From a virus (Duplodnaviria; Caudoviricetes), in IMG/VR virus record IMGVR_UViG_3300006734_000001, positions 1 to 52,162 of that record: 52,162 nt of DNA; one strand, 5' to 3'. Below the pieces are notes generated by a model. That model was not told the origin of the DNA. It saw only the letters and a list, made by a program, of their open reading frames with translations, and did no database searches. Within the stretch, counting starts at the first letter, position 1, and each line of letters starts with the position of its first letter. Of this stretch, positions 905 to 51,300 are shown piece by piece. Both the position numbers and the translations under genes were made by a program.

Positions 905-967
905 ACCCGCATGAATGCTGGCTCTGGAGCCGGTTATCGTCACCGATAAAAAATAAACAAAAAGGTA

Positions 968-995
968 TTGACACTCCCAACACCGATGATACGTT
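968..995 (+). promoter_or_regulatory. Sigma70-like promoter, probably near-leaderless transcript
   Basis: TTGACA-N16-TACGTT with TG extension; ATG at 1004. Confidence 0.55.
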
Positions 996-1003
996 GGCGG
1001 TCC

Positions 1004-45361: not shown

Positions 45362-45368
45362 TACGGCC

Positions 45369-48300
45369 ATGGAATTCAAATACATTGGCTCGCTGGATGA
45401 AGAGGAGCCAGCAACAACGCAGCAACTAGAACCGCAAGTCAGCCAGCAACCAACCAAAACTGATGGCGGAACGCGGTTCAAATACATTGGCGATGTTGAG
45501 GCAATCGGTCAAGAGTTCTTCAGCTTTGAAGATGCAATATCAGCGATAGGCACGATACCCGAGGCTTTGGCGGTTGGCATTCCTGCTGCATTTCAAAAAC
45601 TTGTAACCGGACTTGAGATTCCAGAAGAGTCTGAAGCTATCGAGAGAGAGATTGAATTCCAACAGAGGATGCAGAAAGAGCAAGCGGATCGCGTGGCATC
45701 AGGCAAGGCCACAGTATTTGGCTCTGCTGTTCGCGCAGGAGCGCCAAGTTACTCTGGGAGCTTTATGACAATGGGCGCAGCAATCCCTGCGGGGATTGGT
45801 GGAGCTATTGCTGGCGGTCCTGCGGCGAAAATCACAGGACCAGCGGCGGCAATGGCGGCATCTGGCACGGTAGCCTATCGCATGGCTGGCTCCGATCTGA
45901 TGTATCGGGCCTACAAGCAGCTTGAAAATAAGAAGGGTTCCCCCCTTACCGATGAAGAGAAAGCAGAGTTTTACAAGACCATTCTTCCTATCGCACAGAA
46001 CGCCGCCCTATGGGAAGCTGGGCCGGAAGCGGTCAGTAATGCCATCTCTCTTGGCGTAGGCAGGTTTGTATTCGGATTCGGTAAGGGCACTGCAAAGCAA
46101 GTTGTCAATGAATCCATCGAGGCAGCAAACAAGACCTTAACCCGCAAGATTGGGGAGAAGAGCGCCGCAATTGCTGGAGGATTGGGGGCGGAAATTGCCA
46201 GCGAAGGCGTTACCGCTATGGGTCAGTTCCCGCAGGAGAAAAAGGTTCAGCAATTCGTGGAGACAGGAACAACCGAAGGCGCAGAGACTCAATACCCCGG
46301 CGGATATTTACAGGCAGTCAAGGATGTCGCGCCTGCCACCACGGCAGTATATTTTGGAATGGGTGCAGTAGGCGGGGGGGCTAAGCTAGCTACCCTCCCA
46401 TTCCAGAGGCAGAAGTCGCCAGAGCAGATCGAGGAAGACAACATCAATCTTGAGGCTGAAAGGGTTTCGAGAGAGCTTTCCGTTGGCGAGACAGACGAAG
46501 AGACGAAGGGTATCGTCGCCGCGCTCAACACCGCTAGGGATAACCTCGCTGCGAAGAAAGAAGTCTACACCGCGCTTGAGCCTACCGATCCCGCCGCCCA
46601 ATCCCTTGGTATGGAGATTCGCCAGATGGAGCGGGATGTGGCGATGCTGGATGCGGAACTACGCAAGAGGACTGGCGAACCCCTCGCCCAAGCAGAGGCA
46701 CAGCAAGCAGAGATTGCCCGTGGGTTGGAGGAGCCAGTATCGGCAACGATAACGCAAGAGCAAAGGGTGACAGATCTTCGTGCCGTATCGGAGAATACCG
46801 CTACACCGGAGCAGATCGCGTCTCTTTCGCAGGCCGGGTTGGTCGATGTGATCAAAGGCAAGCCCGTCGTTAACGAGGACGGAGAGGCTATCCTCGCGCA
46901 AGCACAGGCTCCCCTGCCGCGACTTACGCCGGAAGAGAGAGTTGCGGAGATCGAGGGTGAAGCTCCGGTTGCGCCCGCTCCAGCAGAGGGCGTAACAGAA
47001 ACCCCAGAGCAAAGATATTCAAGACTACTTGCGGAAGCTGAACCGTTCTCAAGGCCGGGAACAAACTACAACCGCAATATCGCATCATCCTACGAGCGAT
47101 TGAAGGCTGGAGTTGAATCTGGTTCAACGCTAAACGAACCTCGCGCAGAAGAACTTGAGATTAGACTTCGCAAGGTTCAGCCCGCCCCCGCATCTACTAT
47201 CAGAGAAGAACCGCAAGTTTCTCCAATGATAGGCGCGGAGCCAACTCAACCTGCGCCAGCGGAAGGAGTAACACCAGCACCGGAAACCGCCGCAGAGCCG
47301 GATATCCGCAGAGCGGCAGTAGAAGAAGAAGTCCAACCCGTCCCCGCAGAGGAGCAATACACACCCAAGCAAGCGCAGAGTGCGCTGAAGAAGCTCTTCG
47401 GTCGCAAAATCCCGGACCGCATCAAGATCATCAACGACCCGGAGAATAAGAGAAAAGCTGGATACTTTGTAGATAACGGAGAAATTGAACTAAACCTCGC
47501 GTATCTCAAAAAGACCGACAACTTGGAGGACATCATCACCCACGAAATCGGGCACTTCATCTACCCCGACCCCGAGTTTCAAAAGGCATTCCAATCATTC
47601 TGGGAAGCAATTCCGGATGATAAAAAGGAAAACATCACCAATTACGTCAAGTCTGCCTACAGCAAAGATACTGGAGAAATCCAGATCGAGGAAGCGCAGG
47701 TCATTGCCTTTGAGAAGATCATTGCCCGCAGCAAGCGCGGCGTGAATTGGTGGACGCAACTCAAGGACATCATCAATCGCATCATCAATCGCATCTTTGG
47801 AACTGATTTCGAGGTATCCGACCACGGCGCTATGGCGGTCTTGGCTGCTGGAATCAAGCGATACGGTAGCGGGGAGAGGATCATCCGCGAGACGAAGAAG
47901 CTACCAGAGGGTAGCGATATCCGTATGGCTGGAGTCCAATCGCAGGACGCCCGCTTCGCAGAGCTAGAGGCTAGGGCTAGAGAGGGAGACAAGGAAGCTG
48001 AAGCGGAAGCGCAGAGGATGGTGGATGAGGCGGCGAAGGCGGCTGGGTATGGGATGTATGGTGTTCACAGAACAACCGAGGCTGGAATTACTGAATTCAA
48101 GAAAGAGGGCGTTGGTCGCGGCGTATCATTTTCTGGAGACGCGGGTTTCTATTTTGCTTTTTCTGAAAACGACCAAGCCTCGCAAGTTTTTGGCAATAGA
48201 GTTTACAGGGCTTACCTCAAGGTAAACAACCCCGCTCCTGTATCGGTTGTATTTAAAAATGTAATTAGAACAGTTGTTCCGGAATCCGCAAGAGAAGCTG

Positions 48301-51300
48301 TAGGTAAATTCTTTTCACGACTTCGATTTGAAAGGGCGCGGCAAGGCAACATAATCAATGCGGCAAAGACTGCATTCCAAGAAGCTACCCAGCGCAGAAT
48401 AAATCCAGAGAGAATGTTTAGGGCTGATGCCGAAAGATTGATGGATTTGGGATACGATGGGATTGTCTGGAGCGGAGATGAAAATATAACCGCGCCCCCT
48501 CAAATTGTCGTCTTTACTCCAAACCAAATCAAATCCGCAGACCCATTCACATACGACGATGCAGGCAATCTAATCCCCCTATCCCAGCGATTCCAACCAA
48601 CAGAAAGAGACATCCGCAGAATGGCGGTGGAGCCACGGAGAGAGCAAGAGGCTGGAATCAAGAATATCGGTAAGATTATTGATACGCCGGTGGGCATCAA
48701 CCGCCGCACCGAGGAAGTGATCCGCAGGGATGTGTTCAATTCTGATGAAGTAAACCCAGAGCAAACCGCAAAGGCATACGATCTGATTGATCGGTTGAGC
48801 CGTGATCCAAAAGAGGCGAACAACTACGCCGACGAGATCAATGAACTCACTAGGAAAGAACTCTCTGCTGAAGAGAACAGAGAGGTTGCACAGACAATTG
48901 GCGCGGTGAAGCTCGGAAATGAACTCTTCAAATATGCGGTGAATCTCGCCGCCAAGGGAGATATCCGCATGCTCCAGCTTCTTACTGAACGGTTCAATGA
49001 TTTGGCTACAGGCGCAGGCGGAATCGGGCAGGATGCTCGCAACCTGCAAGCCCGCCAGAACCTAGCAAGCTGGGTGAAGCGAGCGGCGGAAAGCCAGAAG
49101 ACAGGCATTGTTAACGCAGTAGCCATCCAAATCTATGGACCCGGCGCAACACAAGAACAGATCGACACCATCCGCGATGCGGTGAATGCGGTGAACAAGA
49201 CGAAGGTGGAGGATGCCGACGCCATCTACACCGACCTAGAGGAGACGGGTAGCAGGACCGGAGTCGAGATTCGCAAGGCAGTAGAGAAGGCGATGGACAA
49301 AGCTGACGCCTCTAGCAAAGACCCGTGGGTGATGGCTCTGGAGATTGTAAAGGCTATCGAGGGATTCCAGAAGTTCACCTATGAAGGGCTGACCATATCT
49401 GTCCCTCAGAACATCAAGAACCTTGTTAGCAAGAACCTCGCCAACTACCGCAAGAAGATGAAGACCAAGGGCGCGGACGGGTTGGAGAAGACATTCTGGA
49501 AAACGATGTCCGACCAAGAGGACAAGATGGGGCCGCTTGGTGAGGTGGACATGGCGGTGGGCAGGAACTTGGCTGGCATCGTGAAGGATACGCTGATCAA
49601 GCTGGGGCTGAAGGGTGAGCCTCCGGACACCAAGATGACTTTGATCGAGCAGGTTGCCAACATCCTCTCCAACAACGAACTATCGACAGACCGCATGGCA
49701 GAGGCGGATAAGCGAATCTCGGAAGAGATAGCGGCACGCAGGGGGAAAGAGGTTTCTGATGCGGAAGATGCCAATGCTAGCCCGGAGGTCATAGACGCTA
49801 TCGAAGCCAAGTGGGAGGGCATCCAACAAGCATGGGATGAATCCATGTCCCGTCAGATGGATATCCCGATCAGCGATGCCACGCTCCGCCGACTCATTAG
49901 CAATGAACTGAAGGAAGATAATACAACCATCTCGCAATTCGTGAAAGAGGTTGGTGACGATATTGCCATCTCCAACGCAAGGAAGGGAACCATCATTAAC
50001 AAGATCATCTCCAAGCTCAATGGTTTGAATGAGGACGGGTCTACCAAGCGCGACTACACCAAGCTAGAAGAGTTTCTTTCCAGTCAATTTGACCAAATGG
50101 TTTCCAACCAGAAGCTCAAGAACCGGATGCGTTCTGCGGTCAAGAAGGTGGCGAAGGAGGCTGATCCCAACAAGCAGGCGGAACGCCAAATCGAGCGCCT
50201 TGCCGAACTCCAAAGCGATGTCCAGAGGTGGCCGCAAAAGAGGGAAGACAAGGTTCGTGATATTGTTTCCCAAGATTTACGAAACAAGCTGGACTTGGGG
50301 TTGAGGGTCGCAGACAAAATCAAGCGCAACTGGAAGCCTGTGCTTGTAGACAGGTTGGTCAATGCTGGTGTCGATCAAAGCACGGCTGGCATTCTCGCCG
50401 ACATTGTGTGGAGGCAGCATGAGATCAACTATCTCAACAGGAAGATGGCGCAGGTCGAGCGTGCCGTGACCAGAGGCAGTTTGGCCCCGATCATTGATGC
50501 GATCAAGAACACTCCGCTCGCCCAGCAACAAGACCCAGCGTGGAAGAGGAAGGTCGCCTACGATTATCTGATCAACGCAGGGCTGGATGCAAAGACTGCC
50601 GGGAGACTGGCAGACCTCATGGACACCACGCTCCAGAAGGTTCTCGCCGCCGCGCAGGCCAAGGCATTCGAGGACACGCTCAAAGGCAAGCTAGGTGATC
50701 AACGCTCCCGCCGTGGGATGGAGAAGTTCTTGAGGGCAATCCGAACCGGGGCAATCGACCCGACCAAGAATATAACAAGCGAGATCGCCGCCGCCAATGG
50801 GTGGACAGGGTTCACAAGCGAGCAATACGCCCGTCTCTCCGAACTGGATTCTATCGTCAACGATAAAAAGAAGACCGATCTGGAACTTGCTGCCGCCTAC
50901 AAGGAGATTCAAGACATCCTAGCGGACGCAAAGCTACAACCAAGGGTGAGGGAAGCATTGGCTGCATACTACACGGCGAACGCCTTGTCCGGCATCCCAA
51001 CCGCAACGGTGAACATCTTCTCCCCAATTGGATTCTCCCTCCGCAATCTAATGACGGACACGATCAAGAATCTGGCAACCAACCCCGCCGCATTGCCAAC
51101 GACCTTCGACACCTTCGTGTCTAGTTGGAAGACCTACTTCTCGGAGGTGGCATTCAGCTTCAAGAACAATGTTCAGCGTCGAGGCGTGGTGGAATACCTT
51201 TCCAACGACGATATTCTCCTTCGCCTCTACAACAAGGGCAAGAAGCAATGGCAGCAAGGTCAGCGGGCGGAGGGAATGAAGAATATGATTGTCGGCATGA

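Follow-up and report, generated by a model that had tools for sequence, protein, structure and literature searches.

A dispersed, evenly spaced palindrome array in a family of uncultured phages, with a ParB/Noc-like protein as a candidate binder

Why a phage genome should carry the same short palindrome again and again, within essential genes as well as between genes, is the question raised by a complete IMG/VR record of an uncultured phage (IMGVR_UViG_3300006734_000001). The whole record of 52,162 nucleotides (nt) was analysed and is referred to below as the window, and the element in question is the palindrome TATCG-N4-CGATA. Arrays of this sort have rarely been described in viral genomes; the dyad arrays of Cluster O mycobacteriophages are known yet have never been explained, and the present motif was not found in print in a literature search whose coverage lies outside subscription journals and supplementary files. 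The interpretation developed here from sequence patterns, which stands about as good a chance of being right as of being wrong, is that the copies may be solitary, high-specificity sites on duplex DNA for a symmetric dimeric helix-turn-helix protein, likely one encoded by the phage's own replication and regulation module.

Copy number, spacing and placement of the palindrome

The window contains 23 exact copies of TATCG-N4-CGATA; in 100 shuffles that preserved dinucleotides, the mean was 0.03 and no shuffle had more than 1. The motif is nearly all-or-none, since allowing one mismatch yields just four more sites (27 in total, with 1.14 expected); across the nine complete genomes of the family, 192 sites are exact and 41 have one mismatch, where about 15 of the latter would be expected. 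All 21 copies listed in an initial annotation of this DNA are present, and those at 31863 and 37868 are additional. The family consensus, taken from a logo that was symmetrised in this analysis, is the 16-base-pair (bp) palindrome T-TATCG-K-N-N-M-CGATA-A, in which the outer T/A reach 88%, the first spacer base is K and the fourth is M. The spacer formula K-Y-R-M of the initial annotation fits 22 of the 23 window copies and fails at 37868, where the spacer is TTCC.

By the gene calls made here, 92.3% of the window is coding and 7.7% non-coding. Ten copies lie at gene boundaries, in that 7.7%, as had been estimated, while the wholly intragenic copies number 13 instead of the supposed 11 or so. 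In 500 shuffles that kept each protein and the codon set of each gene, intragenic copies averaged 0.29 and never exceeded 3. The intragenic copies are read in two phases, nine as x-I-[V/G]-x-D-x and four as [L/V]-S-x-T-I. The copies are spaced more regularly than chance would give. The gaps between them have a coefficient of variation of 0.52 in the window (0.94 ± 0.17 for random positions, P 0.0005) and 0.43-0.75 in eight complete relatives (about 0.93 expected, P 0.0001 to 0.084), these genomes sharing ancestry and so not counting as independent trials. The widest gap, put earlier at about 5.6 kb, measures 5615 bp. The sites are solitary, evenly spaced and unclustered, and in this they differ from an ordinary operator set, as the initial annotation had argued. 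The 23 copies are as follows.

935-948: between the stop of the giant gene (904) and a sigma70-like -35 element (TATTGAC at 965) heading the rightward operon 1041-4479
2652-2665: within gene 2248-3081, codon 135
5880-5893: within the helicase gene 4965-6626 (minus strand), codon 245; exact in 5 of 9 homologues
7922-7935: in the gap of convergent genes 7260-7835 (plus strand) and 7975-8322 (minus strand)
11422-11435: adjoining the ATG of 11179-11421 (minus strand)
13099-13112: last codons of 13084-13665 (minus strand), 12 nt upstream of the ATG of 12878-13087 (minus strand)
15947-15960: within the DnaB-like helicase gene 15567-16796 (minus strand), codon 279; lineage-specific
16799-16812: occupying the stop-to-start gap upstream of the DnaB-like gene
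18348-18361: adjoining the ATG of 17937-18347 (minus strand), 12 nt from TTGACCCGTCAA (18374-18385) and 50 nt upstream of the XRE gene
19489-19502: closing a 350-bp non-coding stretch, 45 nt ahead of gene 19548-20705
21030-21043: within the large terminase gene 20938-22770 (minus strand), codons 576-581 (FIGNDK), 92 nt from the gene end; universal in the family
23187-23200: in the gap that precedes the putative portal gene 23211-25631
26057-26070: within gene 25866-27176, codon 64
29470-29483: right after the stop of 28960-29469, 7 nt before 29491-29820
31863-31876: within gene 29824-32013, codon 680
32321-32334: within the tail-fibre-like gene 32235-32873, codon 29
33726-33739: within the amidase gene 33134-33841, codon 198; exact in 4 of 4 homologues
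34739-34752: in the gap upstream of a tailspike-like gene (ATG at 34762)
37868-37881: within the tailspike-like gene 36819-38582, codon 350
38773-38786: within gene 38582-40441, codon 64; near-universal in the family
41123-41136: occupying the gap between 40915-41121 and the ATG at 41137
46738-46751: within the giant polyvalent-protein gene, codon 457
50852-50865: within the giant polyvalent-protein gene, codon 1828

Conservation in relatives and selection on the DNA

The same arms recur in every relative sampled, and many of the sites are at conserved positions. The terminase identifies 261 relatives in IMG/VR, and the motif is present in all 80 of the best loci (72-100% amino-acid identity; 316 sites in 775 kb), as it is in all 80 loci that the XRE protein retrieved (388 sites over 882 kb). 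Site density in these relatives is about one per 2.3-2.5 kb. Twelve of twelve whole records carry 13-29 copies, compared with 0-1 for a control pattern read backwards, and the nine complete genomes have 16-29 copies each. The eight complete relatives share about 70% nucleotide identity with the window over a third of its length, and their G+C content is 44-49% as against 52%.

Positional conservation varies from gene to gene. The terminase site (near codon 578) is found in nine of nine complete genomes, the site of gene 38582-40441 (about codons 64-66) in eight, the site upstream of 41137 and that of gene 2248-3081 (about codons 132-135) in seven each, and the site upstream of the portal gene in five, with decayed copies in two. 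The codon-279 site of the DnaB-like gene is exact in 4 of 50 unique homologues. The giant gene, which is strongly divergent among relatives (7-53% covered), has two to four sites per genome at places that differ between genomes.

Terminase homologues were picked blind to the motif (162 matches, of which 161 were usable and 94 unique), and the site is exact in 91 of the 94. At conserved degenerate residues, minor synonymous codons account for 1 of 363 third positions fixed by the motif and for 460 of 1102 in the flanks. The site of gene 38582-40441 is exact in 9 of 9 homologues, and the corresponding counts are 0 of 26 and 20 of 71. Because synonymous positions are frozen inside the motif, selection acts on the nucleotide sequence and not on the protein, a conclusion that the initial annotation had drawn from the different frames in which the copies are read.

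A sister clade provides a natural comparison. The capsid family is small (41 representatives at E ≤ 0.001), and a representative at 48% identity led to this clade; no viral contig was found for a capsid relative at 41% identity. The 42 sister loci (657 kb) contain 3 copies of the motif and no other palindrome array with five-base arms, and of the seven complete sister genomes six have no copy and one has a single copy. Four sister genomes share with the window just packaging and structural genes, namely the terminase, 22764-23180, the portal, scaffold-like and capsid genes, 38582-40441, 40442-42099 and 42587-43681; the replication and regulation module is entirely missing from them, including both candidate binders introduced below. 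At the places of the terminase and 38582 sites, the sister genomes have other or similar residues and other codons. The array therefore travels with the non-structural module or with the host, rather than with the packaging and ejection machinery that the array-poor sister also possesses. A packaging or ejection ratchet, one of the functions suggested earlier, is disfavoured by the same comparison, as a clade with homologous TerL, portal, capsid and ejection-side genes is nearly free of copies.

Candidate binding proteins and rival explanations

The variation within the sites points to a duplex-DNA target. Among 351 sites, spacer positions 6 and 9 are complementary in 165 (180.9 expected if they are independent) and positions 7 and 8 in 160 (187.2 expected), with no pairing covariation beyond the fixed arms in either the spacer or the flanks. 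Mixed half-sites, such as G..A, occur at the frequency predicted by independence. Since half-sites vary independently and show no pairing covariation, the motif would be better matched to a symmetric dimer on duplex DNA than to an RNA or cruciform hairpin, and to this extent the dimer-type target proposed in the initial annotation, with its invariant arms, appears well founded. The spacers also differ by genome: TCAA is preferred in the window, TTAA in G008, and GAAA in G010 and G011. Sites at different places share a spacer in 409 of 2039 pairs within a genome (20.1%) and in 1457 of 16076 pairs between genomes (9.1%), and orthologous sites adopt the favoured spacer of their own genome.

Two proteins of the non-structural module are candidates for the binder.

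3526-4479, plus strand: candidate A, a 317-amino-acid protein with a ParB/Noc-like DNA-binding domain
18412-18717, plus strand: candidate B, a 101-amino-acid XRE/Cro-type helix-turn-helix protein (Pfam HTH_31/HTH_3)

Candidate A is present in eight of eight relatives at 53-62% identity, and its central domain is nearly invariant. All nine members match the NCBIfam family LmbU_fam_TF below the cut-off (best E 1e-9); LmbU is described, in excerpts of a report on this protein, as a homodimeric regulator that binds a palindrome and whose helix-turn-helix was modelled on Spo0J (PMC6510168). Foldseek searches with the AlphaFold model of the 317-amino-acid protein (predicted local distance difference test score, pLDDT, 78) returned best rows that are nearly all Noc, Spo0J and ParB (6y93, 7ol9, 4umk and 6t1f; probability 0.84-1.0, E 0.09-0.7), and the DNA-binding domain of Noc on its site gave a target TM-score of 0.69. 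No ParB CTPase domain was matched in Pfam up to E 10 in the nine members, and residues 1-100, searched within the whole model, gave no match of the ParB CTPase type. In a homologue search all of the matches listed (at least 120) were family members, at 50-53% identity. The earlier suggestion of a parS- or Noc-like system thus gains a concrete candidate in a conserved protein with a ParB/Noc-like domain, while its further element, coating or organisation of the whole chromosome, gains no such backing.

Candidate B is conserved at 41-47% identity in eight of eight relatives with a near-invariant recognition helix, and its profile has weak matches to SinR and to the 434 and P22 C2 repressors. In its 5-4-5 geometry the site is similar to the 14-bp operators of phage 434. 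All nine complete genomes have a second palindrome, TTGAC-NN-GTCAA (18374-18385 in the window), between the XRE gene and a divergent gene for an acidic 136-amino-acid protein, and in the window and G005 a motif copy lies 12-13 nt from it. This second palindrome resembles two back-to-back -35 elements, and it could be the XRE protein's own operator.

The 317-amino-acid protein is preferred to the XRE protein, with a probability somewhat short of even that it is the binder; the XRE protein has a distinctly lower one, and a binder supplied by the host is likewise on the unlikely side. Other proteins were considered and set aside. The very basic 80-amino-acid protein of 13632-13874 (minus strand) is the best conserved non-structural protein (63-93% identity in eight of eight relatives), and it has no family match, Atlas hits to viral hypothetical proteins alone and a poor model (pLDDT 56). 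Neither the replication initiator nor the possible small terminase subunit (6707-7273) was retained, since both are weakly conserved (26-51%), in contrast to the invariant arms.

If the ParB/Noc-like protein does recognise the palindrome, dimers would occupy about 20 sites, one every 2-3 kb. In nine of nine complete genomes a copy of the motif stands 13-31 nt upstream of the TTGAC that heads the operon with 2248-3081 and 3526-4479; this site would allow autoregulation, which fits a conserved copy at the head of the very operon that encodes the ParB/Noc-like protein. The remaining sites would be those at module boundaries and inside long genes, where the bound protein might be a roadblock or silencer working in both directions, or an anchor that helps to organise the genome, much like KorB at its operators or Noc and ParB at their sites. 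As a side effect, 16-bp sites at junctions could serve as joints for exchange and for the gain and loss of gene cassettes. Even spacing, the retention of sites in long or fast-evolving genes and the lack of clustered operators speak for a genome-wide role over the control of single promoters. Taken one step further, a tentative and on balance unlikely proposal is that a CTPase-less ParB/Noc-like protein and some 20 evenly spaced palindromes would form a phage-encoded system that silences or organises the whole chromosome, equivalent in a virus to KorB/OB or to Noc and its binding sites (Noc/NBS), possibly with the small XRE protein as a partner, present in hundreds of uncultured aquatic or sediment phage genomes and with sites that double as module joints.

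Several observations weigh against a phage-encoded dimer with regulatory effect. The majority of sites are distant from recognisable promoters and give no clear sign of a regulatory effect. Across a very diverse family the arms do not vary, in contrast to immunity repressors, which diversify, and this invariance would suit a conserved host protein too. The genome-specific spacer preference could stem from base composition or from different hosts. Finally, the sister comparison implicates no single gene, because the whole module is missing there and the host may differ, which leaves room for a host factor.

Two rival explanations concern the relation of the sites to transcripts. A promoter-like element, in which one arm would be the -10 hexamer for leaderless or short-leader transcripts, is quite improbable, even if it would explain the copies at start codons: in the window, a start codon follows within 0-10 nt of the end of seven of the ten boundary copies, several copies occupy the whole stop-to-start gap, and no Shine-Dalgarno sequences were found before start codons (for example at 23211, at 41137 and, on the minus strand, at 16796 and 11421). 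One arm of the 18348 copy also lies 18 nt from a TTGACG -35 element on the minus strand. TTGAC at an upstream spacing of 16-18 nt is nevertheless found in just 13 of 1342 oriented views (671 unique sites), most sites show no TTGAC at a constant distance, and positions beyond ±2 in the flanks carry no signal, so the motif is not a composite promoter; half of the sites lie deep in genes, and at several gene-proximal sites the gene-facing arm reads TATCGG, which by our reading is a hexamer without its last T. An excess of ATG right after the site (117 of 1342 views) was dropped, being close, by our own estimate, to what flank composition predicts. An RNA hairpin of 5-6 bp, serving as a processing, stability or translational operator signal, is the least probable of the alternatives. 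It would suit the copies in the translation initiation region of several genes, and some A-rich spacers are skewed to the sense strand (GAAA 30 versus TTTC 4, with orientation guessed from AT skew and the skew confounded by an A-rich coding strand and by orthologous copies counted repeatedly). Yet it is the sequence of the arms that is fixed and not just their pairing, with no compensatory or wobble pattern; TCAA/TTGA and GTAA/TTAC are equal in both orientations relative to transcription, sites also occur in convergent and divergent gaps, and Rfam and tRNA scans gave no match. Nor do the sites resemble intrinsic terminators, having a 5-6 bp stem with two G-C pairs followed by A (88%) rather than T, and a terminator scan of 16000-24000 lists no motif site.

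The other rivals assign the array to the host, to recombination or to an enzyme. A host-driven motif, either bound by a conserved protein of the host or produced by a bias in its methylation or repair like that of the highly iterated palindrome (HIP), should be equally frequent in the host chromosome, and it is rather unlikely. The invariance of the arms at just about 70% nucleotide identity, the all-or-none character of the sites, as biased conversion would give, and the lack of a conserved phage methyltransferase (N6/N4 in 0 and C5 in 1 of 11 family genomes) are in its favour. On the other side, the sole prokaryote assembly with such a contig has all 20 copies on that contig and none in its other 750 kb or so, although it is probably not the host; the sister clade, which may infect another host, is nearly without copies; and multi-copy contigs in a scan of viral collections occur, among the matches listed, only in apparent relatives. 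The contig in question (L235, contig C3 of G017) is a 51.8-kb whole genome of the family inside a 0.8-Mb public metagenome-assembled genome titled Woesearchaeota archaeon, and it looks like a mis-binned phage rather than a host link, because the phage encodes a peptidoglycan amidase, DnaB and RusA. Recombination as the primary function, with the sites as joints for site-specific or short-homology exchange of modules between co-infecting relatives, is improbable, although mosaicism does track the array. Among 81 family sequences compared in segments of at least 88% identity, 73 of 880 distinct segment ends fall within 15 nt of a site centre (11.2 ± 3.3 for random positions), and a segment end occurs at 40 of 90 junctions with a site and 149 of 730 without (odds ratio 3.1, from related and hence pseudo-replicated sequences). 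In two cases a cassette, of 572 bp (G007 36908-37480 versus G010) and 815 bp (L199 13265-14080 versus four relatives), lies between two copies where relatives have one, and contigs from other metagenomes diverge from the window at 16798, 18347 and 23202, each beside a site. The excess is restricted to gene junctions, and the deep-intragenic sites, which are the most strictly conserved, have none (0 of 88 ends, 1.0 expected); no integrase or resolvase was found across 11 family genomes, and some twenty such sites would scramble a genome. We regard the mosaic joints as a side effect of having identical 16-bp sequences at junctions, an explanation also proposed for Cluster O phages. Fixed nicks in some phages have a density similar to that of the present sites, and the palindromes could be substrates of an enzyme, such as the HNH endonuclease of 18657-18971, that leaves single-strand interruptions at fixed places, or points at which replication or recombination could enter. 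The all-or-none, enzyme-like specificity is consistent with this view, as is an HNH gene found in eight of eight relatives and missing from the sister clade; a palindrome nicked on both strands would break the genome, however, and small HNH proteins beside terminase genes usually have a packaging role. A substrate role is decidedly improbable.

Related site systems and further features of the genome

The closest parallel to the array is the 17-bp dyad repeat of Corndog and its relatives in Cluster O, for which excerpts of the original description give 34 exact and 3 variant copies in Corndog and the authors' inference of a dimeric binding protein, with a classical transcriptional role deemed unlikely (PMC4351075). 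As set out there, both arrays have inverted arms that do not vary, set around a short variable spacer of which one form dominates, about 30 copies per genome and few near-copies (3 beside 34 exact copies in Corndog, 4 beside 23 in the window); in both, copies are intergenic, near gene starts or deep within genes, orientation is unclear, positions are common to relatives, and some indels are bounded by two copies (two cases in the present family). The two differ in sequence and in geometry, which is 7-3-7 in Cluster O and 5(7)-4(2)-5(7) here, and they belong to unrelated phages, those of Cluster O being actinobacterial siphoviruses. The Cluster O comparison covered five close relatives, whereas here the arms persist at about 70% nucleotide identity, so that selection at the DNA level is measurable.

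Sites of Noc and ParB are palindromes of 14-16 bp dispersed over a replicon, and a 16-bp consensus with 16-29 copies in each of nine complete genomes was found here. The DNA-binding domains of these proteins are the closest fold to the central domain predicted for the 317-amino-acid candidate. By sequence the candidate is not assigned to either family, and no CTPase domain, membrane-targeting element or partition partner was detected for it. Plasmid RK2 carries 12 OB sites for its KorB protein. In passages of a report on KorB, the protein is a CTP (cytidine triphosphate)-dependent sliding clamp with a ParB N-terminal domain and a role in partition, and its sites lie beside or far from promoters (PMC11790492). 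A 16-bp palindrome, a ParB-family DNA-binding domain and sites of both placements are thus likenesses, as would be a small second DNA-binding protein, KorA in that plasmid and, here, the XRE protein with TTGAC-NN-GTCAA at hand; the present genome is that of a phage rather than a plasmid, no CTPase domain was detected in the 317-amino-acid protein, and no ParA was seen.

The stoperators of Cluster A mycobacteriophages (L5, Bxb1), according to passages of the report on them, are 24-34 repressor-binding sites in a genome of about 50 kb, with a proposed block to elongation (PMC3029335). They too are scattered phage-wide, many of them in short intergenic gaps, but each is an asymmetric 13-bp site whose orientation follows transcription, their phages are temperate, and they vary between heteroimmune subclusters (PMC3029335). 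The sites described here are symmetric and unoriented, 13 of the window's 23 copies are intragenic, 160 loci and 12 records share identical arms, and no integrase was found in the 11 family genomes searched.

Compared with the arrays known so far, the present family would be a much better test bed, offering hundreds of diverged genomes with the same arms, sites fixed in essential genes at a cost in codon choice, an array-less sister clade and two concrete candidate binders, one of them ParB/Noc-like. If the pairing of protein and site is true, lytic-type phages can carry genome-wide site systems like those of KorB or Noc, and these would offer a way to learn how arrays of this sort govern or organise the chromosome of a virus and favour mosaic evolution.

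The first 123 bases of the record are identical to the last 123, so the giant gene crosses the record ends: its frame at the right end (45369-52162) continues in that of the left end (1-904), giving about 2,500 codons, with an ART-PolyVal domain (ADP-ribosyltransferase of polyvalent proteins) at residues 900-1058 of the product. Replication and regulation genes include those for a PD-(D/E)XK exonuclease, a helicase, a RusA-like resolvase, the DnaB-like helicase, a replication initiator, the XRE helix-turn-helix protein and the HNH endonuclease, and the structural and packaging genes are those for the large terminase, putative portal and capsid, amidase and tailspike-like proteins. The lineage is uncultured, aquatic or sediment-derived, with a podovirus-like gene set. 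No relatives among GenBank phages were found by DNA, capsid or terminase search, the capsid and terminase having been compared with 50,697 GenBank phage records. Contigs from oligo-dT RNA libraries cover parts of the phage, which is no proof of transcription.

Gene starts in the window have A-rich leaders or none, and the gene to the left of the XRE region apparently has a leaderless mRNA, its -10 element in relatives preceding the ATG by about 5 nt. Promoters are sigma70-like (TATTGAC) although Shine-Dalgarno sequences are absent; TATTGAC, a part of such promoters, is enriched in the intergenic DNA of the family (32 occurrences, 5.9 expected). Next to the ParB/Noc-like gene, 2248-3081 encodes a conserved 277-amino-acid protein with an OB-fold-like N-terminus, as suggested by a weak DUF3127 match (E 0.21), and this product may be a single-strand DNA-binding protein.

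In one related metagenome contig, 16884-17903 is replaced by 993 other bases, and about 550 extra bases are present exactly at the 18348 motif junction. The stretch 19190-19547, some 350 bp with no convincing gene and no Rfam match, has an RNA fold z-score of -2.05, with 5 of 100 shuffles folding equally well; it is closed by the motif copy at 19489 and by an inverted repeat, TGCATA-N11-TATGCA (19511-19533), and might serve in packaging or replication or give rise to a small RNA. The large terminase gene (20938-22770, minus strand) opposes its plus-strand neighbours, converging on 19548-20941 and overlapping the start of 22764-23180, and this inverted placement is also kept in relatives and in the sister clade.

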